64,000 nt of DNA. It comes from Candidatus Omnitrophota bacterium. Its GTDB lineage: Bacteria; Omnitrophota; Gorgyraeia; Zapsychrales; Zapsychraceae. Position 1 is the first letter of the stretch. Every line of letters begins with the position of its first letter. The notes beneath the pieces are model-generated. The model made no database searches. It had not been told where the DNA came from and worked only from the letters and a program-made list of their open reading frames with translations. Location: positions 118,591 through 182,590 of the forward strand of contig JADFXT010000003.1 of NCBI GenBank assembly GCA_015233405.1. The letters are read 5' to 3'. Position numbers and translations under genes: made by a program. Positions 16,837-44,355 of the stretch are shown in pieces.

Positions 16837-16841
16837 ATATT

Positions 16842-21834: not shown

Positions 21835-22565
21835 TATTTTGCATAACTGATAATCTGATAAGCAGAATTAAAGAATGCGACCATAAAACCTATCAATCCA
21901 TCTTTATATCCTTTTTTGGCGACATAAGTCCGGAAAAACCGATCGACCGCGCGCCAAAAATATTTCCCGAACGTGAATTTCTTATTCGATTTAAACATCT
22001 TGGTCGCTTCGGCGGTCGTCTGATTATTGAGCTTCGTAAGATAATGCGTAAAATCCCTGTAACTTTTATGAATCGTATCTTTTGTCAGAAACTTGACCTT
22101 TCCCGTCGCACGGACAATCGGATGAACCTCAACCTCTTCAGATTTAAGATGCCCTTTACGAAAAAGCCTCAGTTGAGGCGCCGGATATTGTCCTCCGTAC
22201 TGAAGCCAATAATCACCAATATAATTACGGTGGGGAATTCCATAAACATCCGCTTGAGGATTGGCTAACTCGTCTTCAATTTCTTTTTTTAATTCTTCCG
22301 TCAGGATTTCATCCGCATCGAGGACTAAAGCCCACTCACATGTCCCTTGGTCATTTGCCCAATTTCTGTGGACGCCTTCGATGTCCATTTTCCTAAAGAG
22401 GATTCGGTCTGTGTACTGTTTAGCGATCTCAACCGTCTTATCCGTACTCTCGTCGTCAATAATGACAATTTCTTTCGCCCAACCATAAACACTTTTTAAG
22501 CAGTCATGCAGGCGCTTTTCTTCATTCTTGACACAAACAATAATGGACAAAGGCACAGGGATCAT
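21804..22565 (-). CDS. Glycosyltransferase family 2 (WaaE/KdtX-like), tandem paralog 2
   Basis: Same motif set as the neighbour (IIDDESTDKT, LDADE, KKGYKDGLIGFMVAFF...YAKYW). Confidence 0.8.
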   Translation of the reverse strand: MIPVPLSIIVCVKNEEKRLHDCLKSVYGWAKEIVIIDDESTDKTVEIAKQYTDRILFRKMDIEGVHRNWANDQGTCEWALVLDADEILTEELKKEIEDELANPQADVYGIPHRNYIGDYWLQYGGQYPAPQLRLFRKGHLKSEEVEVHPIVRATGKVKFLTKDTIHKSYRDFTHYLTKLNNQTTAEATKMFKSNKKFTFGKYFWRAVDRFFRTYVAKKGYKDGLIGFMVAFFNSAYQIISYAKYWEMTQKKQS

Positions 22566-23677: not shown

Positions 23678-23689
23678 GGAACTTTCACC

Positions 23690-24784
23690 TTATCCTTTCT
23701 CAAAAAGGGTGGACAATATGTCTTCCACATTTTTTAAAACATTTTCTATCGTAATGTCGTTTAAACAACTCACATGGCTACAAGAAGCCCGTCGGAACTT
23801 TCGATAACAAGGCCTGCATAACGTCGCGGCAGTCACAACAGCATGTCCCTTTTGGGGATATGGCCCGTAAACATTCTCATTGACCGGTCCAAAAATGGAG
23901 ACCGTTTTGGCACCCGAGGCGACGGCAATATGCAGCGGACCTCCGTCGTTGACAATAACCAATGAACACTTTTTGGCTAATGCCCCGAACTGTGAAAGCG
24001 TGGTTCTGCCGACGGCCAAAACCGGGCGTTTATGCATCAAATGAGCGATTCTTAAACACAAATCATGCTCAAAAGCATCACCCATCAGTATAATGGCCGC
24101 GGAATGTTTTTCAATCATTTTATCCGCTATTTTCGCCCATTTCTCCGCGGGCCAGCGTTTAAAACTAGCATCTTTGCCCCAACTCGCCCCGCCGCCAGGG
24201 ACCAGACCGATTAAGACCGGCTGAGATGTCAACCCATGGTCTTTCATAAAGGAATCCGCCCAAGCCTCATCTTCATTTGTGATGGTCAATTCCAGCCTTC
24301 TATCTTCAACCGGGATCCCGATCTCATTTAAGAGGTCCAAATAATATTCGACGACATGCTGACGGTCGTAGCCTGTTAATTTAATTCTTTTATTAAGAAG
24401 TATACTTCTATTTTTATAATTAAATCCTATGCGCACTTTGATACCGGCCAGCCAGCCGATAAAAGCGGTAAAAGAACTCAATGAAACATCAATGACGATG
24501 TCGTAATGTTCTTTTCTAATATCATTGACCAATTCAAAAAACTTTCTTAAGAATAAAATTTTCGATTCTTTGGAGATCTGGACGAACTCATCTCGTTCAT
24601 AGACAAAAACCTTGTCGATCTTGGGGTTGCTCTTTACGACATCTTCCGCCCGGCGGTTACACAAATAGCCGATCGAAGAATCTTTAAAATGACTTTTAAT
24701 ATTGTGAATGATCGGCGTCGTAAAAAGGACGTCGCCTATCCCAAAAATATTAATAATGAGAACTTTTTTAGACATACGGTTCAA
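23690..24784 (-). CDS. Glycosyltransferase family 9 (LPS heptosyltransferase-like)
   Basis: VLIINIFGIGDVLFTTP N-terminus and NDGGPLHIA motif, 364 aa. Confidence 0.8.
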   Translation of the reverse strand: MNRMSKKVLIINIFGIGDVLFTTPIIHNIKSHFKDSSIGYLCNRRAEDVVKSNPKIDKVFVYERDEFVQISKESKILFLRKFFELVNDIRKEHYDIVIDVSLSSFTAFIGWLAGIKVRIGFNYKNRSILLNKRIKLTGYDRQHVVEYYLDLLNEIGIPVEDRRLELTITNEDEAWADSFMKDHGLTSQPVLIGLVPGGGASWGKDASFKRWPAEKWAKIADKMIEKHSAAIILMGDAFEHDLCLRIAHLMHKRPVLAVGRTTLSQFGALAKKCSLVIVNDGGPLHIAVASGAKTVSIFGPVNENVYGPYPQKGHAVVTAATLCRPCYRKFRRASCSHVSCLNDITIENVLKNVEDILSTLFEKG

Positions 24785-25826
24785 ACGCTTTCTGTTTTGA
24801 AAGATGAGCGACCAACTGTTTAACGTTTTGGGATTGCTCCTTCGGGCAAATCAAAAGCGCGTCATGCGTGTCGATGACGATAAGATCTTTAAGCCCGACG
24901 GCAGAAACGACTTTTCTCTCCCCAGAAATAAATGTATTATGGCAATCCAGGAAAACGCCCTTGGCCTTAAAGACATTACCATCCTTATCTTTTGGCAGAA
25001 TATCCATTAATGATTCCCAACTTCCGACATCCGACCAGCCAATATTCTCCGCCGGAATGATAACGACATTGTCTGCCTTTTCCAAAATACCGTAATCAAT
25101 GGAGATGGACGGTAATTTTTCCCAATCATCTTCAACATTTTTGATTCGCGGCAAATATTTCTTAAAAGCCGCCAAAATCGCCTCTGCCTTAAAAATAAAT
25201 ATCCCCGCGTTCCAATAATAATTCCCGTCTTGGACATATTGCTTTGCTTTGGCCGCATCAGGCTTTTCAATAAACCGTTCAACCCTCCTGGCTCCTTTGC
25301 CCTTTCCTCTGGCGCCTTTAATATAGCCATAGCCTGTCTCCGGTCTCGTCGGAATAATGCCTAATGTCACCAGATAACCCAAAGCCGCCTGACTTGCGGC
25401 CGCATCCAAAACTTTTAAGAATTCCTTGGGTTGAGCAATAAAATGGTCCGACGGAAGAACGACGATCACCGCGTCAGGATCTCTGTTCAGGATCAAAGAG
25501 GCCGCCCAGTAAATTGCCGGAGCAGTATTCTTCGACGACGGCTCAAGCAATACATTTTGTTTTAGGATCTTAAACGCTTCGGATTGGCGGAAAATCTCCG
25601 CCTTATATATTTTATTCGTGACGACAAAAATATGATCGCCGGAAATCCGGGATTGAACGCGCTTGAGGGTTTGTTGATATAAAGATTCCGGCCCAAGGAT
25701 ATTTAAGAATTGTTTAGGCTTATGCTTCCGGCTTTGGGGCCAAAACCGCGTGCCTGTGCCGCCGGCGAGAATAATGGCAAACAAATGTTTCTTCATGTCC
25801 GATGTTTCCGATGATTTCTTTTTCAT
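24768..25826 (-). CDS. Mannose-1-phosphate guanylyltransferase-like nucleotidyltransferase (no PMI/cupin domain)
   Basis: IILAGGTGTRFWPQSR motif. I prefer the start at ATG 25826, which forms an ATGA overlap with the upstream GT9 stop. The ORF-track N-terminal 49 aa is out-of-frame overlap with that GT9. Confidence 0.8.
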   Translation of the reverse strand: MKKKSSETSDMKKHLFAIILAGGTGTRFWPQSRKHKPKQFLNILGPESLYQQTLKRVQSRISGDHIFVVTNKIYKAEIFRQSEAFKILKQNVLLEPSSKNTAPAIYWAASLILNRDPDAVIVVLPSDHFIAQPKEFLKVLDAAASQAALGYLVTLGIIPTRPETGYGYIKGARGKGKGARRVERFIEKPDAAKAKQYVQDGNYYWNAGIFIFKAEAILAAFKKYLPRIKNVEDDWEKLPSISIDYGILEKADNVVIIPAENIGWSDVGSWESLMDILPKDKDGNVFKAKGVFLDCHNTFISGERKVVSAVGLKDLIVIDTHDALLICPKEQSQNVKQLVAHLSKQKAFEPYV

Positions 25827-26875
25827 AAGCTTCCTCTCTGAACCAAAATATCTTTCAATTGTCCTCGAACTTGTTCTACCGTTATAGATGCCATGCAGGC
25901 CGGGATTTTCCCGTCGAGACAATTCTTTTTCTCTTCGAAGCGGTATGCGGCAGAATAATTGCACGGGCCACAAACAAAATCATTACGGATAAAACGATGA
26001 ATCCCCGGCCCAAGTCCTCCGGTATGATGCGGATTCGACGGGCCAAATAATCCTAGCACAGGAATGTTAAGCGCCCTGGCGATATGAAGTATCCCCGTAT
26101 CCGAGCATAAGACCACCGTCGCACGCTTTATAAACAAAGCCAAATCTTCAAAGCTTCTGTCCACAACCAAATGAACATGTTTTCTTTCCTCTAAAGAACA
26201 ATGCTTAACAATTTCTTCTAACAACTTTTGGTCATTCTTTTGCCCCGTCAGAACAATATCCAATTTTTCTTCTCTTAAAAACCGAATGGTTTGTGCTATG
26301 GACTCTGCCCTCCAACCTCGATAGGGCAAATTCTGCGTGACTCCAGGATGGATAAGCGCATACCGGCCCGGCATCGTTGAAAGCTTACACTCGTCGGAAT
26401 TCGGCAAAACAAAATCCATCAACAAATCTTCGCCTGTTAAGGAAATCTGATAATAATCCCTGACCAGATGTAAATTATTTTCAATCACATGCTTGTCATG
26501 AGAAAACTTGTTGTGAAAATTGAGTCCCTGTTCCCCTTCGCCGGAAAACCCGATGCGAATGCATTGTTTTCCCGTCGAGTGAAAAGCAAATTCCTTATAT
26601 TGCGGGTGTTCTTCTAGAATAAAACACGCATCGTATTTACGCCGCAATAAACACCCGATCAGAAAGTTCCGTCTTAACGCCCCTAAGAAATTTTTGCACT
26701 TACGGTAAACAAAAATACGTCGGACATATGAATTATTCTTAACTGCACAATGCGCTTGCGGAGAGGTGACAAAATCAATGGCACTGTCGGGAAACGTCTT
26801 TCTTAACGCCCGCACCACAGGAGTCGCCATAAAAACGTCGCCGATATTACCAACCCGAATCACCAAAAAATTCAT
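25823..26875 (-). CDS. Glycosyltransferase family 9 (LPS heptosyltransferase-like)
   Basis: IRVGNIGDVFMATP N-terminus and SDTGILHIARA motif, 350 aa. Confidence 0.8.
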   Translation of the reverse strand: MNFLVIRVGNIGDVFMATPVVRALRKTFPDSAIDFVTSPQAHCAVKNNSYVRRIFVYRKCKNFLGALRRNFLIGCLLRRKYDACFILEEHPQYKEFAFHSTGKQCIRIGFSGEGEQGLNFHNKFSHDKHVIENNLHLVRDYYQISLTGEDLLMDFVLPNSDECKLSTMPGRYALIHPGVTQNLPYRGWRAESIAQTIRFLREEKLDIVLTGQKNDQKLLEEIVKHCSLEERKHVHLVVDRSFEDLALFIKRATVVLCSDTGILHIARALNIPVLGLFGPSNPHHTGGLGPGIHRFIRNDFVCGPCNYSAAYRFEEKKNCLDGKIPACMASITVEQVRGQLKDILVQRGSL

Positions 26876-26890
26876 ACGATAACCCTTTTA

Positions 26891-28543
26891 TTATAATTTC
26901 CGTTGCCAGATATTTAGAGACGGCGTGCTGTCGATGATCTGATAATTCTCGTGCACGTAGTTCATCACGCCCGTATATTTCTCTTGGTTCGCAGGGACAA
27001 CAAGTTGCGTCGTCGGTAAATAGTCCGGTAGTTGTTTATACATCACAACATACTTGGGTGTTTGGGCTTCAAGCGCTGTCATAAACTCCCGGTGCCATTG
27101 AGGGCTTATCCACGAAAGAGATACAATTGGAAAACGACCGACAAAAGGACGGTTCACGATAAAATGATACACACCTAAATCAGGGAAAAAAACAATTCTG
27201 TCTTGAGGCTGCGTATGGCTGTTGATGAAATAAGATACTTCCTGGAAATCACGGGCCTGCTGTTCCGGCACGACCATTCCCTGCATACCGGGTAACGACA
27301 GCGAGACCAAATCCTGGTCGGAAAACGGGAATAATTTCGACAAGCGTTTCATCTTTCCCATCAGGCAAGACGTCATTTGAGCCGCATAAAAACGTTTTTG
27401 GTAGCGTGGTAGTGCATAGACCACGGTAGATAAAAAAATGCTCACTAATAAAATTCCCGCCATCACTTGTCGACGGCGCTGGTGGCTGTCTTTCATCCAA
27501 GTCCATAATCGCTCCAATAAGAAAAAGAACAAAAGCTTTTCCGGCTGAAGCGCCGATTCAAATGCCGGACCCCACAAACTGCGCATCGAACCTATGAATA
27601 AAAATAGTCCATATAAAGCTAAACATAAGATGTCCAGACGAACGGCTTTGCGGCGATAAAGATAAATCCCATAGACGAGAACGCCAACGTAGCAAAACAA
27701 AGGCGTCATTTGTTTAAAATTCACATCTTTTGGATTTACCATGGCCGCCAGAACTCCGCCTAACCCTTGCGGGACAGGATCGACCTGCGGAAAAGTTTTG
27801 ATCATATTGGCGCTGATTTGATAATAACTATCTAACATCGGGATAAAAGCTCCCTTGAGCTGTAAAAATAAACACATCGGGAAAAGAATGATAGCTGCTC
27901 CGATGCTGTAAAACAAAATTGAAGACTTAAATAATTTTTCCCGGATTAAAAAACAAAGCGTCAAAAAAATACTGCCAAACGCATAAACGCCGATTTCGAT
28001 GCTGGTCATCAATCCTATGGCGGAAAAAATGCCAGCCATGACCATCCAAAGACCTTTCTTGTTTTTCAGATATTGAAGGACGCAATAGACCGCGGCCAAA
28101 CCCCAGGCGAAACGGAATCCTCCTCCTATGGTAAACGAAACCCGGGGAAAAGTTCGGGCGACAAAGGCGAGCGTCATAGAATATAAAAAAATCCGCGAGC
28201 TGAAAATTTCTTTGGCGATCAAAATACAGACGATCAGCGTGACTAAAGTCCCGAGATAAAAATACGTCGGTATGACCAAAAAATTCCTGCCAACAATATG
28301 CATGGCCCACGCCGGGATATAAAGTTCAAACGGCCCTCTTAAATGCAAAAAATCCCGATAAGGGATTTGCCCGTGGAGAATCGCGTCCACCCCAGGAAGA
28401 TAAAGCCCCATTTCAAAAAGGTTGATTCTCCCCCACAGATAAAACGGATGCCAGGTAATCAAAAGAATAAATACGGACAAAATTCCCGCATCCCATTTGC
28501 CCGGCGCTGAGAGCGCCCATTTTTTTAAATTTTCTATAAACAA
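26891..28543 (-). CDS. Large polytopic membrane protein, paralog A (GT-C/ArnT-like candidate)
   Basis: About 11 TM helices plus a ~190-aa C-terminal soluble domain. Collinear similarity to the ORF at 33308-35197 (LPGVDAILHGQIPYRDF vs LPGVDAVLKGLVPYRDF; ...GRFPIVSLSW vs GRFPMATLSW). Confidence 0.6.
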   Translation of the reverse strand: MFIENLKKWALSAPGKWDAGILSVFILLITWHPFYLWGRINLFEMGLYLPGVDAILHGQIPYRDFLHLRGPFELYIPAWAMHIVGRNFLVIPTYFYLGTLVTLIVCILIAKEIFSSRIFLYSMTLAFVARTFPRVSFTIGGGFRFAWGLAAVYCVLQYLKNKKGLWMVMAGIFSAIGLMTSIEIGVYAFGSIFLTLCFLIREKLFKSSILFYSIGAAIILFPMCLFLQLKGAFIPMLDSYYQISANMIKTFPQVDPVPQGLGGVLAAMVNPKDVNFKQMTPLFCYVGVLVYGIYLYRRKAVRLDILCLALYGLFLFIGSMRSLWGPAFESALQPEKLLFFFLLERLWTWMKDSHQRRRQVMAGILLVSIFLSTVVYALPRYQKRFYAAQMTSCLMGKMKRLSKLFPFSDQDLVSLSLPGMQGMVVPEQQARDFQEVSYFINSHTQPQDRIVFFPDLGVYHFIVNRPFVGRFPIVSLSWISPQWHREFMTALEAQTPKYVVMYKQLPDYLPTTQLVVPANQEKYTGVMNYVHENYQIIDSTPSLNIWQRKL

Positions 28544-30260: not shown

Positions 30261-31370
30261 TTATTGTTTGAGCGATTGGTAGATCTTTAACGTCTCACGG
30301 GCTGTTTTCTCAAAATTAAAATCCTGAGCGCGCTTAAATCCCTTTTGAGAAAGCTCCTCCCGATAAACCCGGTCATTTAAAACACGGACGATTTTTGCAT
30401 AAAGATCGTCGGGATTATAGGGATCAACGAGCGCCGCCGCATCCTGGGCCACTTCCGGACAAGAGGAAATTTGAGAGGTCACCACAGGCGCCCCGCAGCT
30501 AAAAGCCTCGATGATAGGAAAACCAAACCCTTCGTAAAATGACGGGAACACAAAAACTTCCGCTTCATTATATAATGCCCTGAGTTCTTCATCGGTCACA
30601 AACCCGGGGAAAAGAACCTCGGTCTCCAGCTGATATTTCTTAATGATATTAGCGATATCCTCCGAAAGCCAACCTTTCATGCCAGCGGCGACCAGCTTTC
30701 CCTTAAATAGGCCTTGGTCCTTTAATTTTGAGAACGCCACGAGAAGATTCTTTAAGTTCTTCCTGGGTTCGATCGTTCCCACGAACAGAATAAAAGGGTC
30801 TTGAATGCCTTTTAAACGAAGCAATGCCTTGGCCCTCGGCTTTTCCGACGGACTTAGCTGGTAAAACATCTGATGATCAATGCCTTGATAAATCAGCTCG
30901 ATCTTGCCTTCTTCCACAGAAAAATATTTTTTTAAGTCCGCGATGGTGTTTTGGGAACAGCAGATGATCTTTCGGGCATTCTTCACGCTAAAAGCGATCT
31001 TTCGATCCGTTTCCGCACAGGCCGTATCCGTATGCCCCTGAGGGAATGTCTTATAGATCAAATCGTGGACCGTTACGACCATCTTCGCGCCATTCACCGA
31101 AATATCGTCGGGGCTTGGCGAATGATACACATCGATCTTCCCTAAAGTTTTTTCAACACCAGCCTTAAAATGGTCGACCTTGACAAAAAAATTCTTCGCA
31201 TTGACCTTCGGCGTCCTGCGGCGCAAATGAAAAAGCGCCCGAGGAACATAAAGCAGATACCGATTTTCGGAATCAATCTTAGCCAAATGCTGAAACAAAT
31301 TCCATGTATAACGGCCAATACCGGTATAGTTACGATTGACGATAGAACGACAATGAATTCCGATTTTCAT
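30261..31370 (-). CDS. Glycosyltransferase family 4 (GT-B)
   Basis: C-terminal EGFGFPIIEAFSCGAPVVTS motif. I prefer the ATG at 31370 (MKIGIH) over the TTG at 31385. Confidence 0.85.
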   Translation of the reverse strand: MKIGIHCRSIVNRNYTGIGRYTWNLFQHLAKIDSENRYLLYVPRALFHLRRRTPKVNAKNFFVKVDHFKAGVEKTLGKIDVYHSPSPDDISVNGAKMVVTVHDLIYKTFPQGHTDTACAETDRKIAFSVKNARKIICCSQNTIADLKKYFSVEEGKIELIYQGIDHQMFYQLSPSEKPRAKALLRLKGIQDPFILFVGTIEPRKNLKNLLVAFSKLKDQGLFKGKLVAAGMKGWLSEDIANIIKKYQLETEVLFPGFVTDEELRALYNEAEVFVFPSFYEGFGFPIIEAFSCGAPVVTSQISSCPEVAQDAAALVDPYNPDDLYAKIVRVLNDRVYREELSQKGFKRAQDFNFEKTARETLKIYQSLKQ

Positions 31371-31399
31371 AAAATTATATCTCAATATAGGTTATTAAA

Positions 31400-31516
31400 A
31401 AATCCGAAACACGAAGCACAAAATACGAAACAAATCCGAAATCAGAAAATTTTAAATATTGGATTTTGCATTCTTGCTTTCCTTGTTTCGAATTTCGACA
31501 TTCGAATTTCGGATTT
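31400..31516. repeat. Palindromic intergenic element, family 2 (AAATCCGAAA / TTTCGGATTT arms)
   Basis: The 32-nt arms 31400-31431 and 31485-31516 are imperfect inverted repeats. An inner AAATCC...GGATTT pair sits at 31432-31466. The element shares the 16-mer AAATCCGAAATTCGAA with 35228-35243. Confidence 0.7.
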
Positions 31517-32690
31517 AAAGGATATTTTTGACTCGCAAAAACTCCTCGACTACTTCCGCGACGTAATCGCAGTTTTTCAGCTCAATGTCTTGATGTATGC
31601 CGATATGTGTCCCGTTATTCGAGCAATATTCCGCTTCCGGAAAATCCCCGAGCTTATATCCCATAAATGCGTAACCGGCGCACTGAGTCGGAATGGAGTA
31701 GAACAAATTCCGCGAATCAATGCCAGAGGCTTCCAGATACTGAACAAATTCATTTTTAGTAAATCCCGCGTTTTCCTTGACGATGATGGCAAACGCATGC
31801 GGACCGACTTTTTCGTGCGGTTCCTCTTTTGTATAAATAAAATATTTGCTGAACCGTTCGAATTTCTTAGAAAGATACTTTAAATTCCGCCGGCGCTTCT
31901 CCAAAATCTTCTTAAAAATAGCGACGTTGCCCAATCCGACCGCCGCCTCAAGCTCGTTCATCTTGGCGGAAAATCCTATTCTACGAAATTCAAATTTATT
32001 GACTATGCCGTGATTGCGAAGCGAGCGTAACACTTCCGCCATTTTGGGATTATTCGTAATCACAATGCCGCCTTCGATGGTCGTGATAATATGCGCGGCA
32101 TAAAGACTAAACGCCGCCATGTCGCCGATGGTCCCCAGCATCTTTCCTTTATATTCCCCGCCGTGCGCCTCAGCCGTATCCTCAATGATAAAAAGTTTGT
32201 ATTTTTTTGCGATCTGCTGAATCTTATCCATCTGGGCGGGTTTTCCCATCAAATGGACCGGCATGATCGCCCGTGTTCGTTTGGTAATGGCCGCCTCTAT
32301 TTTATCCGCGTCGATATTAAGTGTTTCGCGTTTCACGTCGACAAAGACCGGTTTAAACCCGGCCTGAAAAACCGCACTGGCTGTCGCCACAAACGTCAAG
32401 GCGGGGACAATGATCTCATCGCCACGCTGGGCGCCAAAATCATAAAGCGTTGCACACGCCAGGGCATTGGCATCCGTGCCGCTTGAAACGGCCACGGCTT
32501 CTTTGACGCCAAAGATCGCAGCGAATTTCTGTTCGAATTCCTGAACATATTTGCCGCGCGTTACCCATTTCGACTTTAGCGCTTCATTGATCAACTTGAC
32601 CGCTTTGTCGGTAATAGAAACAGTTCCAAACGGAACTTTATATTTGGCCTTGGCTGAAAATGTCGAGCTTTTATTATGATCAATCTTCAA
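31515..32690 (-). CDS. DegT-family PLP enzyme of the ColD/RfbH type (probable nucleotide-sugar 3-dehydratase); His replaces the Schiff-base Lys
   Basis: DegT-fold motifs are present, but the active-site segment reads FSLYAAHIITTIEGG (His200, codon at 32091-32093). The in-window paralog has FSFYPTKGLG at the same place. Confidence 0.7.
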   Translation of the reverse strand: MKIDHNKSSTFSAKAKYKVPFGTVSITDKAVKLINEALKSKWVTRGKYVQEFEQKFAAIFGVKEAVAVSSGTDANALACATLYDFGAQRGDEIIVPALTFVATASAVFQAGFKPVFVDVKRETLNIDADKIEAAITKRTRAIMPVHLMGKPAQMDKIQQIAKKYKLFIIEDTAEAHGGEYKGKMLGTIGDMAAFSLYAAHIITTIEGGIVITNNPKMAEVLRSLRNHGIVNKFEFRRIGFSAKMNELEAAVGLGNVAIFKKILEKRRRNLKYLSKKFERFSKYFIYTKEEPHEKVGPHAFAIIVKENAGFTKNEFVQYLEASGIDSRNLFYSIPTQCAGYAFMGYKLGDFPEAEYCSNNGTHIGIHQDIELKNCDYVAEVVEEFLRVKNIL

Positions 32691-32709: not shown

Positions 32710-33417
32710 CTAAAATTTCAAAACACTTTGCGCTTTTTGATAGCGCTCAGGGGTTCCGATATCGTAAAACGGCTTATCTGTGATAAAACCGAAAAACTGT
32801 TTGCCGAGAAGCGTCGGGAAAAAATTAGTCTCAAGAGAAAACCTGTCTTCCTGGGGCATGAGCTTAAAGACTTCCGACGACAAACAATAAATCCCCGCAT
32901 TCACATAAGAAGGCCCACCGACTTGCTTTTCCTTAAACGAAACAATTTCCTGATGGTCATTAAGCGTAATGCCGCCAAAATCCCTGCTGTCGTCGGTTTT
33001 TGATACGGCCAAACACGCTTGGGCATTTTTCTTTAAGAAATAATCCAAAAACTCCTCTAGATCAAGCGCGCAAAAAGAATCTCCATTGAATACGAAAAAT
33101 GGATTGCCTTTAACTAAGGGTTGGGCATTTTTGATAGCACCTCCCGTCCCGAGCGGCGTCTCTTCCCGGGAAAAAACAATATCCACGCCTGGAAAATGGC
33201 CAGCATAATGATTTTCTAAAATATCAGCTTTGTATCCCGTGCACAAGACAATATTACGGATTCCTTGGTTTTTGAGATATCCGATGAGAATATCCAAAAA
33301 CGGCTTGTCATTGACCTTTGCGAGGACTTTTGGAGCGCCTTGCGTGACCGCCTGAAGACGCTGGCCGAGCCCTCCGCACAGGATGAGTGCTGATATTTTG
33401 CTTAGGTTTTTTTCCAT
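32710..33417 (-). CDS. Sugar-1-phosphate nucleotidyltransferase (HddC-like)
   Basis: ALILCGGLGQRL, PLGTGGAI and the ~235-aa size match the HddC/short NTP-transferase family. I prefer the ATG at 33417 over the TTG at 33420. Confidence 0.75.
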   Translation of the reverse strand: MEKNLSKISALILCGGLGQRLQAVTQGAPKVLAKVNDKPFLDILIGYLKNQGIRNIVLCTGYKADILENHYAGHFPGVDIVFSREETPLGTGGAIKNAQPLVKGNPFFVFNGDSFCALDLEEFLDYFLKKNAQACLAVSKTDDSRDFGGITLNDHQEIVSFKEKQVGGPSYVNAGIYCLSSEVFKLMPQEDRFSLETNFFPTLLGKQFFGFITDKPFYDIGTPERYQKAQSVLKF

Positions 33418-35197
33418 CAAGGCTCTTTCGTTGATAAATAACCGATTTGCTCGTCGTAGCCTTCATCACATAATTCTGGGCGACAAACCAGAGCATATCG
33501 TTAAATTTGATCCTATTATTGTCGTTGAGGAAATAGACATCATTATATTTCGCGCTAAACACTTTCGGCAGAACAATATATTGCGGCGGATTTTCTTTTA
33601 AATCCGTCATCAGCTGTTGATGCCACCGATCATTAAGCCAAGACAATGTTGCCATGGGAAAACGCCCGTACACCGACCTTTGCGCTAGAAAATAAAGCGC
33701 GCCTTCTTCAGGGTACATAAAAATCCGGTCTTTATCGCTAATAAATTTTTGCATCATGGCCGTCAAGGATTCCAAGTCCTCGGCTTGAACAGCTGGAACG
33801 ACCATCCCCTGGGCTCTCAAAATCCGTAAAGGCCTTTCGACAGTCGGCGCAGCTTTCAAACAAATTTGCTGACCTAGAAGGATTTTCGTCATCGGGAATT
33901 TTTTATAATAGCGGATGAGCGCAAAGCCTAAAGAAGAGCCGATAAATAAAAACATTAAAACAGGAATGACCATTTTCCTCAGGCACAACGGAACTTCTTG
34001 CTTCGCTGGCTCAACAGTCCCAAATAAATCTGGTGTCGTCTCTCGACGGGATTTGGAGGTTTTTAATGGCAAATCCGCCGGCTGATTGAGGATGGTCTTC
34101 TCTGGACATAACGCGTGTTTGAAATCGCTCAGAAAAAAAACAAAAAATCGTTCCAAAAGATAAAACAAGATAATTTTCTCCGGCTGAAGTGCCATAAGAA
34201 ATCCGGCCCCTTCCTTATGGCCAAGTGCCAGGACAAACAAGGTCGCCCCATAACCCGCCAACGTCACTAAAATCGCGTGGTCTTTGGTAACACGATTATT
34301 TTTAAACTCCTGGTAACAAAAAATACTAAAAGCCAGATAGAGATATGCGGGCGTCAAGAATTTAAAATGCGGATTTCCCGGAATCAGCCACGCTATAAAC
34401 TCTAACGCTGTTTTAGGATATGTCCCGGGAGCCATGACCTTTGCCGCACCCAAGATAACCGTCCCCAACGAATTAAGGTAAGCGACCAACGATCCCGTGA
34501 GGATCAAATAAAAAACATACGGCAGAAAAATAAAAAGAATGCCACGGCCAAAAACGTCAAAATGTTCTCGGAAAAGTTCTCGCGAAATGATCTTGAACAT
34601 ATAGGCAAAACATAGCCCTAGAACAATCCCGACAAAAGCACAAACGCCGATCTCCCAATTTGAGAGAAATGCGCAGGCTGTGAGAATTCCCGCCGATAAC
34701 AACCACCCCTTTTTTTGTTTCTGAATATATTTTACGGCAGAGTAAACAATCCATAAGCCAAAAACATATCCCAATCCGTCTGCACAGGTAAAAATACCCT
34801 GAGGAAATGTCCTGGCAATCAAAACAACCATGCAAAGTGCATAAACAAATTTTGTCTTAAAGACATCTTTAGCGATCAAGACACAGAGCAAAAATGTCAG
34901 GACATTGCTGATATAAAAATAAAGCGAAAGCGTCGGAATATTGACCCCAAAGAATTTCATAACAAGGGCCGGCAAGTATAAGGTCAGAGGGCCATACAAA
35001 TGAAAGAAATCCCGGTAAGGCACCAGCCCTTTTAACACGGCATCTACGCCGGGAAGAAATAAGCCGTATTGATAAAGATTCATTTCCCCATTGAGATAAT
35101 TAGGGAATATGCAGATAAAGACCGTGAACAGGGCCAAGGCAAGAGCATTCCCATAAGTCGGTAAACCATAGAGCCAGTCTGTCTTTATTCTTTTCAT
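33308..35197 (-). CDS. Large polytopic membrane protein, paralog B (GT-C/ArnT-like candidate)
   Basis: Paralog of 26891-28543. The last ~38 aa (SLDGKKPKQNISTHPVRRARPASSGGHARRSKSPRKGQ) overlap the next gene out of frame and extend past the paralog's homologous end. Confidence 0.6.
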   Translation of the reverse strand: MKRIKTDWLYGLPTYGNALALALFTVFICIFPNYLNGEMNLYQYGLFLPGVDAVLKGLVPYRDFFHLYGPLTLYLPALVMKFFGVNIPTLSLYFYISNVLTFLLCVLIAKDVFKTKFVYALCMVVLIARTFPQGIFTCADGLGYVFGLWIVYSAVKYIQKQKKGWLLSAGILTACAFLSNWEIGVCAFVGIVLGLCFAYMFKIISRELFREHFDVFGRGILFIFLPYVFYLILTGSLVAYLNSLGTVILGAAKVMAPGTYPKTALEFIAWLIPGNPHFKFLTPAYLYLAFSIFCYQEFKNNRVTKDHAILVTLAGYGATLFVLALGHKEGAGFLMALQPEKIILFYLLERFFVFFLSDFKHALCPEKTILNQPADLPLKTSKSRRETTPDLFGTVEPAKQEVPLCLRKMVIPVLMFLFIGSSLGFALIRYYKKFPMTKILLGQQICLKAAPTVERPLRILRAQGMVVPAVQAEDLESLTAMMQKFISDKDRIFMYPEEGALYFLAQRSVYGRFPMATLSWLNDRWHQQLMTDLKENPPQYIVLPKVFSAKYNDVYFLNDNNRIKFNDMLWFVAQNYVMKATTSKSVIYQRKSLDGKKPKQNISTHPVRRARPASSGGHARRSKSPRKGQ

Positions 35198-35335: not shown

Positions 35336-36319
35336 TTACGTTGGTTGATAAAAAATAATTTGCGTCCCCAGGTTTTCAAATTTAAACGGCACAAAAAGAA
35401 GTTTTCGCAGTGTCTGCCGGACTTTCCGCTGGTTTTCCGGAGGAACGAATAACAGCATAAAGCCGCCGCCACCGGCGCCCAACAATTTTCCGCCGATTGC
35501 TCCCGATGCCCGGGCTGCTTTATAAATATCATCGATATGCGATGTTGAAATTTTGTCCGAAAGGGTTTTCTTAATGCGCCAAGATTCATGCAAAAGCTTT
35601 CCGAATCGACGGATATTGCCCTTTTGTAGAATATCTGTGGCTTCAAAGACCATGTCATACATCGCCTTAAGTTCGGCTTTTTTATTAGGGATATTTTGTA
35701 TCTGATGCGCCGCGATCGTCGAGGCGATCCGGGAAAAACCGGTGAAATACAGCATGAAATGGTTTTCCAATTCCTTGATGCGCTCCGGAGCGATGGTCAC
35801 ACTTTGCAGCTGAAAATCATTCTTTCCGTCAAACTGGATGAGATTAAGACCGCCGAACGCCGCTTGGATCTGGTCCTGACAACCGACATTTTCCCGGCAC
35901 ATATTTTGTTCAATATAGATCGCTTCCTTAGCCAATTGCCGCTTGGTCGTCATTTTTCCTTTTAAAGCATAAAGGGCATTTAAAAGCCCGACGGTAAATG
36001 AGGAACTCGACCCAAGTCCTGTGCGGGCAGGCAGATCGCCATCGTGATGGATTTCCAAGCCTTCTTTGATTTTTAAAAACCGCATAACTTCACGCACCGC
36101 CGGGTGATCAATTTCATCAATGGCTTTGATATGTTCCATTTTGGAATAAATAATACGGGACTTGTAGCCAAAAAAGGGCGGCAAATACCGGCACGTGATG
36201 TAACAATACTTATTGATGGTCGTGGCAAGAACAGCCCCCTTATTATCAGCAAACCATCCCGGATAGTCCGTGCCTCCTCCAAAAAAAGAAACGCGAAACG
36301 GTGTGCGGCTGATGATCAT
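35336..36319 (-). CDS. GHMP-family sugar kinase (HddA-like, heptose-7-phosphate kinase type)
   Basis: MIISRTPFRVSFFGGGTDYP N-terminus, GHMP motif PARTGLGSSSSF, 327 aa. Confidence 0.75.
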   Translation of the reverse strand: MIISRTPFRVSFFGGGTDYPGWFADNKGAVLATTINKYCYITCRYLPPFFGYKSRIIYSKMEHIKAIDEIDHPAVREVMRFLKIKEGLEIHHDGDLPARTGLGSSSSFTVGLLNALYALKGKMTTKRQLAKEAIYIEQNMCRENVGCQDQIQAAFGGLNLIQFDGKNDFQLQSVTIAPERIKELENHFMLYFTGFSRIASTIAAHQIQNIPNKKAELKAMYDMVFEATDILQKGNIRRFGKLLHESWRIKKTLSDKISTSHIDDIYKAARASGAIGGKLLGAGGGGFMLLFVPPENQRKVRQTLRKLLFVPFKFENLGTQIIFYQPT

Positions 36320-36353: not shown

Positions 36354-37832
36354 CTAATCTTTCGGGTAATTGTTCCGAACAAGTTTGACCATACACATCT
36401 TTTTAATATTGTTGACCGCCTCAAGCCCAAAACGTTCTTCAATTCGCGCGAGGTATCGCGGGTCTGTAAAATAATTATCAAAAGCCTCGTCGCGGAACTT
36501 AAGGACTTGTGGGCCGGACAAATATTTGGTGGCCAGCGGTAAGCAATCTTTACTGAACTGGGAATACGCGCTCCAGCTTTTCGGAAGCGGCGTTCCCTGT
36601 TGGACGGCATCCGCATAAAGCTTCGAGCCCGGATAGGCCATGGCGCAATAAAGGTTCGCGTACGCACAATTGAGTTCCTTGGCCAGATCAAGGGTTTCCT
36701 GCATGGTTTCCATATCATCATCGGGAAGCCCGAAAATAAAATTCGAAACGACCTCAATCCCAGCGTCGTGCGTCATGGCAATGACCCGCTTGATGTCGTC
36801 TTGCGTGAATCGTCCTTTCGTCACCCCGTCGCGGACCTTTTTACTTCCAGCTTCAATCCCATAAGCAAGCCAGTTGATTCCCGCCTGCTTCATTTTTTTA
36901 AGCATATGTTCCTTGACCGAATCAATTCGTCCGTAAGCCCAAAAATTTAATTTCTCGCCCAAGCCTTTGGCAATGATCCCGTCACAAATCGCCTCCACAT
37001 GGCTCCATTTGGAGACAAACAGCTCGTCGAGAATTTTAATATTTCTCATCCCATAATGTTTAACCAAATATTCGACTTCCTCGACCACTTGCTGTGGCGG
37101 ACGATACCGAATTCCGGGCTTGCCGAAAATCGAATTGATGCAGCAAAAATCGCAATGAAATGGACAGCCTAAGCTGGTATAAATCACGGCATACGGCTGA
37201 CGCTCTTTAATGTGCGAAAAACAATGCCAATTGTGCGCGCGATACTTATCCATCGGCAAGAGATCCCACGCCGGCATGGGCAAAATCCCTAAGTCATCGA
37301 TATTTTCCGCTCGAGGATTAGAAAAAATTCTCCTATCTTTCCGGTACCAAAGTCCTTTGATGCAAAATTCATCGCCAATGTCTTTCTTTGACTTTAATGC
37401 GGCAACCAGCTCAAGATGCGTCGTAAATCCTTCGCCCTCGACAACAAAATCAGCAGCCTCTTCTTTCATCGTTTGTTCGGGCAAAGCCGAAGGGTGAAGC
37501 CCGCAAAGAACCGTTGGGATATCTTGAGCGACTTTTTTTATTTCTTGTAAAAAAAGACCGGCGCCCGGCATATTGATCGTCGAGGCTGACGGATTTGTCC
37601 CGGATACAACCACGGAAACCAAAACAGGCTTAAGCGTCACTGCACGTTCTATGGTTTCTTCAACACTTAAATTCTCCGCCTCTGCATCAATAACAGAAAC
37701 CGTGGCGCCACTTTCACGCAGATACGCGGCCATTAAAATAAGCCATAACGGCGGCTCGATCCCCGAAAAATCTTCGCTTAACGCCTGAAAGACTTTCTTT
37801 TGATTATTGGGCTTGATAAGAACGATATCCAT
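36354..37832 (-). CDS. B12-binding-domain radical SAM enzyme (class B)
   Basis: N-terminal B12-binding-like Rossmann domain, followed by the radical SAM cluster motif CPFHCDFC (CxxxCxxC). Confidence 0.8.
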   Translation of the reverse strand: MDIVLIKPNNQKKVFQALSEDFSGIEPPLWLILMAAYLRESGATVSVIDAEAENLSVEETIERAVTLKPVLVSVVVSGTNPSASTINMPGAGLFLQEIKKVAQDIPTVLCGLHPSALPEQTMKEEAADFVVEGEGFTTHLELVAALKSKKDIGDEFCIKGLWYRKDRRIFSNPRAENIDDLGILPMPAWDLLPMDKYRAHNWHCFSHIKERQPYAVIYTSLGCPFHCDFCCINSIFGKPGIRYRPPQQVVEEVEYLVKHYGMRNIKILDELFVSKWSHVEAICDGIIAKGLGEKLNFWAYGRIDSVKEHMLKKMKQAGINWLAYGIEAGSKKVRDGVTKGRFTQDDIKRVIAMTHDAGIEVVSNFIFGLPDDDMETMQETLDLAKELNCAYANLYCAMAYPGSKLYADAVQQGTPLPKSWSAYSQFSKDCLPLATKYLSGPQVLKFRDEAFDNYFTDPRYLARIEERFGLEAVNNIKKMCMVKLVRNNYPKD

Positions 37833-37981: not shown

Positions 37982-38914
37982 TTAAATGTTCGCGTACTGA
38001 TTGCGCTTGATGACCTGATACCCTTTGATAAGTTCCTTAAGCCCGTCGGGTAAAGAGACCTGCGGCTTAAATCCCGTCTTCTCTATCTTTGCGTTACTAA
38101 CGATATAATCACGCTTGTCCGGGTCTTCGCCGATCGCGGATTCCACAAAATAAAAATCCGGAATCAGTTTCTTGATCTCCTCGCAGAGTTCCATCTTGCT
38201 TAAATTCGCATCGCTTAAGCCCACATTATATGGCTCATTTTTCATGGCGCTAAAATTCTTCAAACTATGGATAAACGCACGGGCCACGTCGCGGGTATGG
38301 ATATAATTACGCTTAAAATGCGCCTCAAATAAGACGACATAACGATCATAAACAGCGCGGTACGTAAAATCGTTGACCAAAAGGTCGAGGCGCATCCGCG
38401 GGCTTATGCCGAAGGCTGTTGCCAGACGAAGCGTAATGGCATTACCTGACGATAAAAGGGCATTCTCGGCGTCAACTTTAAGCTTGCCGTATAAAGAGAT
38501 CGGCCTTAAAGGGGTTTCTTCCGTACAGAATTTTCCTTTTTCTCCTATACCATAACCGCTATTGGTCGTCGGAAAAATGATCATCTGGTCCTTGCTGCGC
38601 AACTTTAAGATCATTTCAATAGCGCCGAGCAAGATTGCCTGGGCGGCCTCAGGCTCTTTTTTACACAAGGGCGCACCGGTCAAACACGCTAACGGAAAAA
38701 TCGCATCGGCATTCTTTATGAGGCGCGCCAAAAGTTCTTTATCCCGCGTGTCTCCTCGGATGATCGTCAATTTTGGGTCATAGCAGCAGTCCAATAAAGA
38801 CGATTGATTGTACATAAAATTATCCAATACCGTCACTGTATGATTTTCTTTTAAAAGTTCCGGCACCATCACTGACCCTAAATACCCTGCCCCACCTGTC
38901 ACTAAAATGTTCAT
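37982..38914 (-). CDS. NAD(P)-dependent sugar epimerase/dehydratase/reductase (extended SDR)
   Basis: VTGGAGYLGS Rossmann motif and YGKLK catalytic pair, 310 aa. Confidence 0.75.
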   Translation of the reverse strand: MNILVTGGAGYLGSVMVPELLKENHTVTVLDNFMYNQSSLLDCCYDPKLTIIRGDTRDKELLARLIKNADAIFPLACLTGAPLCKKEPEAAQAILLGAIEMILKLRSKDQMIIFPTTNSGYGIGEKGKFCTEETPLRPISLYGKLKVDAENALLSSGNAITLRLATAFGISPRMRLDLLVNDFTYRAVYDRYVVLFEAHFKRNYIHTRDVARAFIHSLKNFSAMKNEPYNVGLSDANLSKMELCEEIKKLIPDFYFVESAIGEDPDKRDYIVSNAKIEKTGFKPQVSLPDGLKELIKGYQVIKRNQYANI

Positions 38915-38918: not shown

Positions 38919-39854
38919 TTACTCCTTCTTTTTATTTAAAAACCACTGATACGTTTCTTTAATGCCTTCCTTTAGTTCCTTCTTGGCTTTCCAACCCAAA
39001 TGCGCGATGCGGCTATTATCCAACAATTTCCTCATCGCTCCATCGGGCTTAGAGGAATCAAAAACTAATTTTCCTTTAAATCCCGCCGCATTTGCAATCA
39101 GACTTGCCAAATCCTTAATCGACACATCCGACCCGCAGCCGATATTGATAACCGCTTCTTCATCATAATGCTCCATCAAAAATGAACACGCCTGGGCAAA
39201 ATCATCCTTAAACAAAAATTCTCGCCGGGGATTTCCAGTTCCCCAAATGACGACTTCGGGCTGATTATTCTTCATGGCGTTCGCGAATTTGCCAATCAAC
39301 GCACCCATCACATGCGCCGTCTCTAAATTCACATCGCTTCCGGGACCATAGACGGTTGGTGGAATAGCTACGATGGCATTTAATCCATATTGCCGATGGA
39401 ACATCTGGGCTAATTTTATACCGGCAAGCTTCGCTAGCGAATACGCTTCGCTGGTCTCTTCCATCTTTCCCGTGCCGATATATTCTTCTTTCATAGGTTG
39501 ATCACAAACCTTGGGATATACACACGAGCCTGCCAAATAAAGCAATTTCTTGACGCCAAACTTTTGTGCGGCGTAAATGATATTGTTTTGGCTCTCGAGG
39601 TTGTGATACATAAATTCCGCACCCATCTTCTGGTTGGCTTCGATCCCGCCGGAGCGCGTGGAACCTAAGAAGACATAATCCGGCCGCTCAGAGGCGAAAA
39701 AGCCATAAACAGAAGCCTGAATGGTTGTATTGATTCCTATTTTCGACGACGAAATGATATGGGTATAACCGCTGGCCTCGAAATACTCCACCAGCGAGTT
39801 TTCGATGATATCATTATGCCCGACGACAAATATTTTGGAATTTTTATCCATCAC
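38919..39854 (-). CDS. GDP-L-fucose synthase / ColC-like SDR with atypical N-terminal nucleotide-binding motif
   Basis: Collinear with Fcl (GSCVYP, YSLAKLAGIK, WGTGNPRREFL, FDSSKPDG, YQWFL). The GxxGxxG position reads GHNDIIE. Confidence 0.75.
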   Translation of the reverse strand: MMDKNSKIFVVGHNDIIENSLVEYFEASGYTHIISSSKIGINTTIQASVYGFFASERPDYVFLGSTRSGGIEANQKMGAEFMYHNLESQNNIIYAAQKFGVKKLLYLAGSCVYPKVCDQPMKEEYIGTGKMEETSEAYSLAKLAGIKLAQMFHRQYGLNAIVAIPPTVYGPGSDVNLETAHVMGALIGKFANAMKNNQPEVVIWGTGNPRREFLFKDDFAQACSFLMEHYDEEAVINIGCGSDVSIKDLASLIANAAGFKGKLVFDSSKPDGAMRKLLDNSRIAHLGWKAKKELKEGIKETYQWFLNKKKE

Positions 39855-43034: not shown

Positions 43035-43051
43035 ACAAACTCCTTCTATTC

Positions 43052-44353: not shown

Positions 44354-44355
44354 CT

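Follow-up and report, generated by a model that had tools for sequence, protein, structure and literature searches.

Which reaction, and on which sugar, is catalysed by a DegT-family enzyme in which the Schiff-base lysine has been replaced by histidine? The question is raised by a gene, here called DegT-H (31515-32690, minus strand, 391 amino acids), in a 64,000-nucleotide stretch of the genome of a Candidatus Omnitrophota bacterium (assembly GCA_015233405.1, contig JADFXT010000003.1, positions 118,591 to 182,590), which is referred to as the window and in whose coordinates positions are given unless another locus is named. The product was predicted to be a nucleotide-sugar C3-dehydratase dependent on pyridoxamine or pyridoxal 5'-phosphate (PMP/PLP), an assignment that is well supported by sequence, phylogeny and gene context, and it was placed in a distinct, uncharacterised subclade of the histidine-type (E1/ColD/SpnQ) enzymes. 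The operon in which the gene lies is conserved among Omnitrophota and uncharacterised; to judge from its gene content, it appears to convert GDP-heptose to a deoxy sugar of the cell envelope that is unusual and may be branched.

A histidine at the Schiff-base position

Two DegT-family open reading frames (ORFs) are present in the window. One (22562-23677, minus strand, 371 amino acids) is a canonical Lys-type aminotransferase with Lys187 in FSFYPTK(187)GLG, which lies outside the module described below and served as the outgroup of the tree; the other, DegT-H, reads FSLYAAH(200)IITTIEGG, with His200, at the position of the catalytic base, encoded by CAT (ATG on the plus strand) at 32091-32093. 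An earlier note on this DNA had reported both motifs and the codon, and a re-reading of the sequence agreed with it on each. The start codon of DegT-H is TTG, with AAAGGAG 8 nt upstream. In a phmmer search against the PDB, His200 was aligned to the catalytic Lys186 of GDP-perosamine synthase (PerA; FSLYAAH-IITTIEGG versus FSFFGNK-IITTGEGG), and in a MAFFT alignment the same column held His188 of ColD and His220 of E1, in agreement with the replacement of the Schiff-base lysine that the note had proposed. Histidine for this lysine is the defining difference of the nucleotide-sugar 3-dehydratases E1, ColD and SpnQ (review PMC8987622).

Position 200 was His in 120 of 120 homologs (70-100% identity, among the matches listed) and at all 80 species-level Omnitrophota loci, these being the best 80 of 396 GTDB species genomes that matched the peptide patterns of the family. 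Because the residue was invariant across homologs and loci, a chance substitution or a sequencing error was ruled out. Homologs of DegT-H are 70-84% identical across hundreds of species, and the PLP-site residues D171 and S195 and the motif S70-G71-T72 are invariant in the family. Two plus-strand ORFs (31170-31883, 237 amino acids, and 32091-32486, 131 amino acids) run antisense to DegT-H and the neighbouring family 4 glycosyltransferase (GT4) gene; their translations are of low complexity and rich in Lys, Arg and Ile, and they are almost certainly not genes.

Relation to known 3-dehydratases and aminotransferases

DegT-H matched Pfam PF01041 (DegT_DnrJ_EryC1) over residues 26-381 with 348.5 bits (cutoff 19.8). 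None of the NCBIfam equivalogs, those for aminotransferases included, reached its cutoff; the top match was RfbH (E1, NF011936), with 268.6 bits against a cutoff of 423 and split into two stretches. Amino acid identity was 36% to PerA, 37% to the transaminase 7B0M, 32% (31.6%) to ColD, 30% to E1, 31% to 9WVY, and 33% to the Lys-type protein of the window, and the best PDB matches in both sequence and fold were perosamine synthase-like enzymes. The family is isolated: in a search of 1.84 billion cluster representatives the nearest was 55% identical and the others at most 45%. Among the top 150 representatives the Schiff-base column held His in 87 and Lys in 60.

A neighbour-joining (NJ) tree was calculated from 119 full-length sequences (371 columns, 100 bootstraps), among which those of ColD, E1, 9WVY, PerA and 7B0M had been transcribed from HMMER printouts. 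All 73 His proteins, including ColD, E1, 9WVY and DegT-H, formed a single clade (bootstrap 92), all Lys aminotransferases, PerA included, fell outside it, and DegT-H was placed within a 63-member subclade of His proteins (bootstrap 78) that contained neither ColD nor E1 nor 9WVY. The tree is supportive rather than definitive, since the sampling was biased towards relatives of DegT-H. Active-site residues were listed from the alignments, and those co-varying with the histidine were all present in DegT-H (A199, K243, P297, H362, G364, H366, Q367, M148, and Gln109 in place of Tyr).

The AlphaFold2 model of DegT-H has the DegT fold (mean predicted local distance difference test, pLDDT, 88; predicted template modelling score, pTM, 0.89), and its sole internal stretch of low confidence, residues 234-240, coincides with a shortened loop. 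Foldseek gave TM-scores of 0.83-0.90 to PerA, E1 and ColD, and did not separate dehydratase from aminotransferase. Of the checks that the earlier note had suggested, alignment and phylogeny thus favoured a dehydratase and the structural model did not discriminate. Neither a Lys at the Schiff-base column nor clustering with aminotransferases, either of which the note had held would speak against it, was found, and its prediction of a sugar 3-dehydratase was supported by the histidine hallmark, the all-His clade, the signature residues and the gene context described below.

Absence of the Fe-S loop

The insertion of 20-30 residues that follows R-x-[HW]-G in ColD and E1 is absent from DegT-H, and no Cys is found there. 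The nearest non-Omnitrophota relatives (51-62% identity), which include the proteins P0123 and P0128, a plasmid protein of Solidesulfovibrio (Desulfovibrio) magneticus RS-1, and Geobacter and Pseudodesulfovibrio proteins, carry an insertion CxCx2-3Cx5-12CxKRF that was aligned to CyCapgCdntCkkrf of E1. Among the matches listed, CxCxxC was present in 120 of 120 RS-1-type homologs and the full Cys motif in 117 of 120, while an iron-sulfur (Fe-S) loop was found in 0 of 120 Omnitrophota homologs, likewise among the matches listed, and at 0 of the 80 Omnitrophota loci. Where E1 has EDCC, the Omnitrophota clade has EDTAEA or EDAAEA. At none of the inspected loci, the window included, was an E3-like or ferredoxin-reductase-like gene present within 10 kb on either side of DegT-H. 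For comparison, a four-Cys 2Fe-2S site is present in E1 and SpnQ, and none in ColD (PMC8987622). Because the close relatives keep the Cys loop and the Omnitrophota proteins and loci are uniformly devoid of it, the Omnitrophota enzyme is best described as a cluster-less derivative within the E1-like lineage; on its sequences, the clade looks like such a lineage after loss of the Cys loop.

The earlier note had favoured a protein of the ColD type. The part of this claim that concerns the Fe-S site stood, as Cys occurs in DegT-H at positions 79, 337, 356 and 374 only, and just two Cys are invariant across the family. Membership of the ColD family did not: at 32% identity, DegT-H lies in a separate subclade (bootstrap 78) outside that of ColD and E1, it is devoid of the ~20-residue loop of ColD, and no gmd gene is found nearby.

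A Cj1427-type dehydrogenase and the predicted heptose substrate

The enzyme co-encoded upstream of DegT-H that would supply a nucleoside diphosphate (NDP)-4-keto sugar is a C4-dehydrogenase, not the usual 4,6-dehydratase. This short-chain dehydrogenase/reductase (SDR; 37982-38914, minus) matched PDB 6VO6/6VO8 with E = 4e-119 and 57% identity over 308 ungapped residues. The titles of these entries name Campylobacter jejuni Cj1427 with NADH and GDP-D-glycero-D-manno-heptose; they were reached via Foldseek of a poor single-sequence model of the SDR (pLDDT 43), the structural scores of which were left unused. The T-x-E motif of 4,6-dehydratases is absent from the Cj1427-type protein, which reads PTTNSGYG instead, and no 4,6-dehydratase of the Gmd/RmlB type is encoded at 19-48 kb of the window. 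Cj1427 retains the 6-OH of its substrate, and its bound NADH is re-oxidised with alpha-ketoglutarate (PMC10680097; PMC7949155). In vitro, Cj1427 together with a ColD-type C3-dehydratase gave GDP-D-glycero-3-deoxy-4-keto-heptose, and the authors described these 3-deoxy-heptoses as novel (PMC10680097). The substrate of DegT-H is accordingly predicted, from the identity of this neighbour, to be GDP-4-keto-heptose made by the Cj1427-type dehydrogenase and not GDP-4-keto-6-deoxymannose, the kind of 4-keto-6-deoxy sugar that the earlier note had implied.

Three further genes of the window resemble those of heptose pathways. A GHMP kinase of the heptose-7-phosphate 1-kinase type (35336-36319, minus) matched NCBIfam HddA with 149 bits, below cutoff, and its top PDB matches were the heptose phosphate kinases 4usm/4usk, 3k85 and 4n3o (WcbL/HddA type). 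The gene directly upstream of DegT-H (32710-33420, minus) encodes an HddC-like sugar-1-phosphate (guanylyl)transferase (178 bits, cutoff 300), with top PDB matches 6jq8/5xhw, a Yersinia '6-deoxy-D-mannoheptose pathway protein' (E = 2.5e-40). More distant (20378-21028, minus) is a GmhB-like heptose 1,7-bisphosphate phosphatase (NCBIfam NF006506, 146 bits, cutoff 178), which was syntenic in 33 of the 80 loci.

The operon and its surroundings

In order of transcription, all on the minus strand, the genes around DegT-H are LptD (45690-47894), two NDP-sugar dehydrogenases (43052-45690), a UXS-type UDP-glucuronate decarboxylase of the SDR superfamily (42090-43034), thiamine-dependent E1 alpha-like and E1 beta-like subunits (41096-42070 and 39966-41006), a GDP-fucose-synthase (Fcl)-like SDR (38919-39854), the Cj1427-like SDR, a B12-binding radical S-adenosylmethionine (SAM) enzyme (36354-37832), the HddA-like kinase, a PMT_2 membrane glycosyltransferase (33308-35197), the nucleotidyltransferase, DegT-H, and the GT4 gene directly downstream of it (30261-31385; Pfam Glycos_transf_1 and Glyco_transf_4), which likely transfers the sugar product, to judge from its adjacency. 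The E1 alpha-like subunit (324 amino acids) matches AviB1 and Pau11 in size and type, the E1 beta-like subunit (346 amino acids) has Transket_pyr and Transketolase_C domains, and no E2 or E3 gene was found near the pair. The radical-SAM enzyme combines Pfam B12-binding and Radical_SAM domains; its best family matches, HpnJ with 160 bits and BchE with 150, fell short of their cutoffs.

The Fcl-like SDR (ColC/MlghC-like) scored 364 bits with NCBIfam Fcl (cutoff 500), 264 bits with PDB 1bws and 198-231 bits with MlghC/DdahC. Its Rossmann motif is degenerate (G-H-N-D-I-I-E-N, versus G-H-R-G-M-V-G-S in Escherichia coli Fcl) and Gly (YGPG) takes the place of His179 of Fcl; the catalytic S-C and YxxxK residues are retained. 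The deviation is conserved elsewhere among Omnitrophota (loci L001, 1303-2268, and L006, 4848-5780) and in the RS-1 plasmid copy (L092, 11054-11983). The protein may be an epimerase that has lost NADPH binding, and an epimerase and/or reductase function on the 4-keto intermediate is possible.

The PMT_2 gene between kinase and nucleotidyltransferase is variable and not part of the core, being missing from that position in most other Omnitrophota loci. The 3' end of its ORF and the start of the nucleotidyltransferase ORF share ~110 nt (33308-33420, minus), and the last ~40 residues of the PMT_2 translation, rich in Arg, Ser and Pro, look like out-of-frame read-through. Further downstream of the GT4 gene lie GT2 genes, PMT_2, GT9 genes, ManC, the Lys-type DegT, another GT2, the GmhB-like gene, an MGDG-synthase-like gene and PriA. 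A set resembling that for modification of lipid A/core by 4-amino-4-deoxy-L-arabinose (Ara4N) surrounds the module (21804-28543 and 42090-47894, minus): it consists of the two NDP-sugar dehydrogenases, the UXS/ArnA-type decarboxylase (STSEVYGDP...YDEAKR), the ArnB-like Lys-type DegT, an ArnC-like GT2, and PMT_2/ArnT-like glycosyltransferases. With two GT9 heptosyltransferases and LptD also present, the region at 19-48 kb looks like a supercluster for the core of lipopolysaccharide (LPS). Outside it, two GGDEF proteins are encoded at 49226-51565, a heat-shock operon (HrcA, GrpE, DnaK, DnaJ) lies upstream within 55419-62621 (minus), with a Zeta-toxin/AAA_33-like kinase ORF (56769-57347, minus) between DnaJ and unknown ORFs, and KdpC (12371-12970, minus) marks a Kdp K+-ATPase operon downstream.

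Conservation of the cassette

Partner genes were counted at those 46 species loci of Omnitrophota whose sequence extends 8 kb or more upstream of DegT-H. A nucleotidyltransferase was present in all 46, a kinase in 45, a Cj1427-like SDR and a thiamine-enzyme subunit in 44 each, a B12 radical-SAM gene in 43, and an Fcl-like gene in 37. The nucleotidyltransferase was directly upstream of DegT-H in 67 of 76 loci and a GT4 gene directly downstream in 38 of 70. The thiamine enzyme occurred at the same position in at least three architectures (full E1 alpha/beta, a mini pair, and a single-chain or split transketolase). The usual form was a mini E1 alpha (~210 amino acids) with a mini E1 beta (~175-178 amino acids) that had no Transketolase_C domain, and the full-size pair (324/346 amino acids), as in the window, was found in 5-6 loci; the sites are L001 14-1204, L003 2421-3545, L091 8841-10004, L089 4647-6485, L093 4822-6602, and 39966-42070 in the window.

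The partner set also accompanies DegT-H homologs of only 41-55% identity. Locus L003 (55%) has the SDR, the mini-E1 pair and the radical-SAM gene; L089 (41%) has a kinase, a single-chain transketolase, a Cj1427-like SDR, a nucleotidyltransferase, a radical-SAM gene and a GT4; and the marine locus L090 (41%) has an E1-like pair, a Cj1427-like SDR, a kinase, a radical-SAM gene and an RmlC-like epimerase. At L091 (41%) a mini-E1 pair and a Cj1427-like SDR were found with a HldE-type PfkB kinase and an adenylyltransferase, and no radical-SAM gene within 10 kb. This copy is low in GC (38%) and adjoins RecA, DnaB, a primase-like gene and a PD-(D/E)XK nuclease (15916-21149), and the contig may come from a phage or other mobile element. 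In a metagenome-assembled genome (MAG) of Geobacter sp. (L093), SDR, nucleotidyltransferase, kinase, a split transketolase-like pair, radical-SAM and DegT-H genes stand beside flaG (1411-1785), and the sugar of this cassette may decorate flagellin rather than LPS; a 1682-residue fusion of radical-SAM/SPASM, GT2 and GT1 domains and several methyltransferase-glycosyltransferase fusions are encoded at 10159-19319 of the same locus. Five other relatives (P0128, P0130, P0141, P0123 and P0147) lie on contigs of 1.6-4 kb with no readable neighbourhood. Of the 80 MAGs with the best matches, many bear the label 'uncultured Planctomycetales' (for example, L021, L022, L024 and L025), yet carry, at 69-75% identity, the operon seen in MAGs labelled Omnitrophota; the Planctomycetales labels are probably taxonomic errors of an automated pipeline.

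A plasmid-borne copy in a magnetotactic bacterium

Searched with tblastn, plasmids gave a single close match, on pDMC1 (NC_012797.1) of S. magneticus RS-1, and phage matches to DegT-H did not exceed 40% identity. The pDMC1 cassette (L092) occupies 22.5-39.7 kb between IS66 elements and encodes homologs of the window's radical-SAM enzyme (50% identity), kinase (59%), E1 alpha (45%), E1 beta (59%), Fcl-like protein (43%), DegT-H (FSLYVAH..., 51%), SDR (57%, and 65% to Cj1427) and nucleotidyltransferase (37%), together with two GT2s, a NUDIX protein, a PMT-like glycosyltransferase, an L-2-hydroxyglutarate oxidase and a SIS/GmhA-like protein. Its composition suggests a self-contained, mobile sugar-synthesis island. 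The oxidase exceeded the cutoff of its NCBIfam equivalog (327.7 bits, cutoff 299), and the SIS protein matched GmhA below cutoff. An L-2-hydroxyglutarate oxidase (LhgO) beside a Cj1427 homolog fits the ping-pong mechanism of Cj1427, which runs between alpha-ketoglutarate and L-2-hydroxyglutarate, and lends independent support to the assignment of the substrate. Neither LhgO nor SIS nor NUDIX homologs were found in the window or at the 80 Omnitrophota loci. The idea that LhgO tracks the Fe-S-type dehydratase, and its absence the glutamate-dependent type, was dropped, as the dehydratase of the Geobacter locus is of the Fe-S type although LhgO is missing there. Nothing on the sugar cassette was found in the literature on pDMC1; RS-1 is amenable to genome editing (PMC6210102).

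A proposed pathway

With moderate confidence, we propose that DegT-H carries out a cluster-independent C3-deoxygenation of GDP-D-glycero-4-keto-heptose, which would feed elaboration by the thiamine and radical-SAM enzymes. The Cj1427-type SDR would oxidise C4 of GDP-heptose with the 6-OH kept, and PMP on DegT-H would form a ketimine with the C4 carbonyl; His200 would then take the C4' proton and the 3-OH would be expelled. As no Fe-S loop occurs in the Omnitrophota clade and no E3-like reductase is encoded nearby, the resulting enamine would most likely be hydrolysed as in ColD, giving GDP-3-deoxy-4-keto-heptose and ammonia. Such a turnover, with hydrolysis of the enamine and regeneration of PMP from L-glutamate, is the sole completion with a precedent, and the alpha-ketoglutarate released could feed the Cj1427-type dehydrogenase. 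More speculatively, the thiamine-dependent E1 alpha/beta pair would probably use the 3-deoxy-4-keto sugar as its acceptor and form a C-C bond at C4 as in sugars of the yersiniose type; further modification would fall to the Fcl-like protein and the B12 radical-SAM enzyme, and the adjacent GT4 would move the product into an LPS-core-like glycan. The data show the His substitution, the place in the His clade, the missing Cys loop, the conserved neighbourhood and the homology of the individual partners; we infer the identity of the substrate, the ColD-like turnover and all steps after the dehydratase.

The established route to 3-deoxy sugars with an acyl branch at C4 pairs a 3-dehydratase with a thiamine diphosphate (ThDP)-dependent enzyme (PMC9306805, PMC4753412). 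YerE, ErwE and MMAR_2332 add acyl branches at C4 of the CDP-3,6-dideoxy-4-keto-glucose made by E1 (PMC9306805), and the pyruvate dehydrogenase-like alpha/beta enzymes AviB1/B2 and Pau11/12 (325/345 amino acids) transfer a pyruvate-derived C2 unit onto C4 of 4-keto sugars (PMC4425429, PMC4753412).

A bolder version, which we regard as a long shot, is that the conserved core, made up of nucleotide-heptose synthesis, the Cj1427-type C4-dehydrogenase, the His-type 3-dehydratase, the ThDP-dependent E1 alpha/beta pair and the HpnJ/BchE-like B12 radical-SAM enzyme, is the missing route to a higher sugar of the caryose type, one derived from heptose, 3-deoxygenated, and either branched at C4 or carbocyclic. 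Enzymes of the HpnJ type have been implicated in the formation of five-membered carbocycles from sugars. Caryose is a carbocyclic LPS sugar (4,8-cyclo-3,9-dideoxy-nonose) whose biosynthesis is reported as unknown (PMC9092360), and it could arise from a heptose, a pyruvate-derived C2 unit, 3-deoxygenation and ring closure: DegT-H would give the 3-deoxy-4-keto acceptor, the thiamine enzyme would add C8-C9 at C4, and the radical-SAM enzyme would close C7-C8. The sugar would then be a phylum-wide envelope component of Omnitrophota, and the dehydratase a natural transition from E1-like to ColD-like, the Fe-S loop having been lost within a single orthologous cassette. Among the listed homologs of the RS-1 protein none was named as Burkholderia or Trinickia, and the link to caryose is speculative. 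A phosphonate pathway (ThDP decarboxylase and B12 P-methylase) was also considered and rejected, as no phosphoenolpyruvate mutase is present and partners of the heptose type fit better.

Alternative functions

Several observations weigh against a cluster-independent 3-deoxygenation of a GDP-heptose. Identity to the characterised 3-dehydratases is only 30-32% and the RfbH score is under its cutoff, Ser241 of DegT-H stands where the G-[FY]-N-x-[RK] motif has its conserved Asn, and the loop that in ColD and E1 reaches the active site of the partner subunit is deleted; with this loop and the Asn both changed, binding of nucleotide and substrate may differ. None of the matches to HddA, HddC and GmhB reached its curated cutoff, and GmhA was looked for in the window and not found. 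The nearest relatives in the same cassette have the E1-like four-Cys loop, and the ancestral chemistry may have been reductase-dependent. Nor does the evidence fix the order of the ThDP, radical-SAM and Fcl-like steps relative to the dehydratase; the thiamine enzyme might act earlier, building a ketose phosphate by a transketolase- or DXS-like reaction. Finally, His-type enzymes can transaminate, as SpnQ does without its reductase (PMC8987622).

The last point bears on the alternative that DegT-H is a His-dependent aminotransferase, or performs other PMP chemistry, yielding GDP-4-amino-4-deoxy-heptose or acting on a different carbonyl (for example, one made by the thiamine enzyme). Database annotations name the family aminotransferase, the nearest structures are perosamine synthase-like in sequence and fold, the dimer-loop architecture resembles that of PerA, and ColD itself runs a transamination half-reaction (PMC8987622). 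However, all Lys-type aminotransferases fall outside the His clade, no N-acyl- or N-methyltransferase is conserved in the module, and the pairing with a ThDP enzyme that is conserved here is that of pathways requiring a 3-deoxy-4-keto acceptor, so that this function seems unlikely, if worth keeping in mind. We consider it improbable that a PMP-glucoseen intermediate is reduced via a partner reductase or ferredoxin, as in E1 and SpnQ, and not hydrolysed: although RfbH is the top NCBIfam match, Ala precedes the His as in E1, and 117-120 of 120 proteins of the same-cassette sister lineages have the CxCx2-3C...CxKRF loop, this loop is wholly deleted in Omnitrophota (0 of 120 homologs, 0 of 80 loci), EDCC is replaced by EDTAEA or EDAAEA, just two Cys are invariant, and the inspected loci hold no E3-like gene, though a partner may be encoded elsewhere. 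The candidate of the earlier note, a true ColD ortholog of the GDP-L-colitose pathway that would dehydrate GDP-4-keto-6-deoxy-D-mannose with the Fcl-like protein as ColC, is very improbable. The His, the missing Cys cluster, the length (391 versus 390 amino acids in ColD) and the Fcl-like SDR and ManC gene of the region speak for it, but true Campylobacter ColD-family enzymes are 62-67% identical to ColD (PMC10440746) and DegT-H 32%, its subclade and loop differ from those of ColD, no GDP-mannose 4,6-dehydratase is encoded at 19-48 kb, the NADPH motif of the Fcl-like protein is degenerate, and the conserved partners are heptose enzymes with a ThDP and a radical-SAM enzyme, the latter two unneeded for colitose. 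Least credible of all is a catalytically dead protein that serves the heptose pathway as a scaffold or regulator; the Schiff-base Lys is indeed lost, as are the dimer loop and the conserved Asn of G-F-N, but 70-84% identity is maintained across hundreds of species with the PLP-site residues and His200 invariant, and His is the residue used by active dehydratases.

Significance and comparison with known systems

Hundreds of database entries of the DegT-H family are named 'aminotransferase'; as the evidence points to deoxygenases, this annotation should change. The cassette of 7-8 genes is uncharacterised and widespread: at least 396 species genomes of Omnitrophota have it, as do Desulfobacterota (Geobacter among them), contigs of marine origin and a plasmid from a magnetotactic bacterium in culture. 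Oxidation of a GDP-heptose and 3-deoxygenation are combined in the cassette with C-C chemistry by a thiamine enzyme and with a B12 radical-SAM step, and the type of sugar is therefore probably unassigned to any pathway. A conserved, unusual component of the LPS region is predicted for the uncultivated phylum Omnitrophota. 3-Deoxy-heptoses retaining the 6-OH have so far come only from enzymes combined in vitro (PMC10680097), and the operon may be a natural route to them, while orthologous cassettes with an Fe-S-loop or a loop-less dehydratase provide a natural experiment on the need for cluster and reductase. A specialist would find little to surprise in the enzyme itself; the conserved and widely distributed cassette, with its pair of Fe-S-plus and Fe-S-minus orthologs, is moderately interesting and experimentally tractable.

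DegT-H shares with ColD (PDB 2GMS/3B8X, including the C3-dehydratases of C. jejuni HS:5/HS:11) the DegT fold, the His on the Lys column, the absence of an Fe-S cluster and of a dedicated reductase gene, and probably a GDP-linked 4-keto substrate. It differs in having Ala199 where ColD has Ser before the His, Ser241 for Asn248 of ColD and no inter-subunit loop of ~20 residues, and in a context without gmd, in which the 4-keto sugar would be made by the Cj1427-type C4-dehydrogenase with the 6-OH retained. With E1 (RfbH/DdhC/AscC; PDB 3BCX) it shares the His-clade signatures and the Ala-His pair (P-A-H in E1), and its nearest non-Omnitrophota orthologs keep a loop homologous to the Cys loop of E1, ending C-x-KRF; the DegT-H clade, in contrast, is devoid of this loop, of the EDCC cysteines and of an E3 partner, and the nucleotidyltransferase is HddC-like (GDP) and not of the CDP-glucose type. 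GDP-perosamine synthase (3BN1) and the metagenomic transaminase 7B0M have the highest pairwise identity (36-37%; TM-scores 0.85 and 0.90) and the same short loop length after R-x-x-G, but they carry the Schiff-base Lys after Asn, Tyr for Gln109 and Pro for Gly364, and lie outside the His clade.

At the level of pathways, the C. jejuni capsular heptose route (HddA, HddC, GmhA/B, Cj1427, MlghC/DdahC) has family homologs of the kinase, nucleotidyltransferase, phosphatase, C4-dehydrogenase (57%) and Fcl-like protein. Natural 3-deoxygenation in Campylobacter, however, follows a 4,6-dehydratase and leads to 3,6-dideoxy-heptoses, and the Omnitrophota operon is without a cupin epimerase and has in addition the ThDP-dependent E1 alpha/beta pair and the B12 radical-SAM enzyme. 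The yersiniose, erwiniose and caryophyllose pathways (E1 with YerE, ErwE or MMAR_2332) likewise co-encode a His-type 3-dehydratase with a thiamine enzyme that attacks C4, and Pau11/Pau12 (325/345 amino acids) are of the same type as the E1 alpha/beta pair of the window (324/346 amino acids). YerE-type enzymes are, unlike this pair, single-chain flavoproteins resembling acetohydroxyacid synthase that act on CDP-3,6-dideoxy-4-keto-glucose, whereas the Omnitrophota sugar is probably a GDP-heptose with the 6-OH still in place; and the Omnitrophota core differs from these branched-sugar pathways in including a B12 radical-SAM enzyme and in presenting its thiamine enzyme in three architectures.

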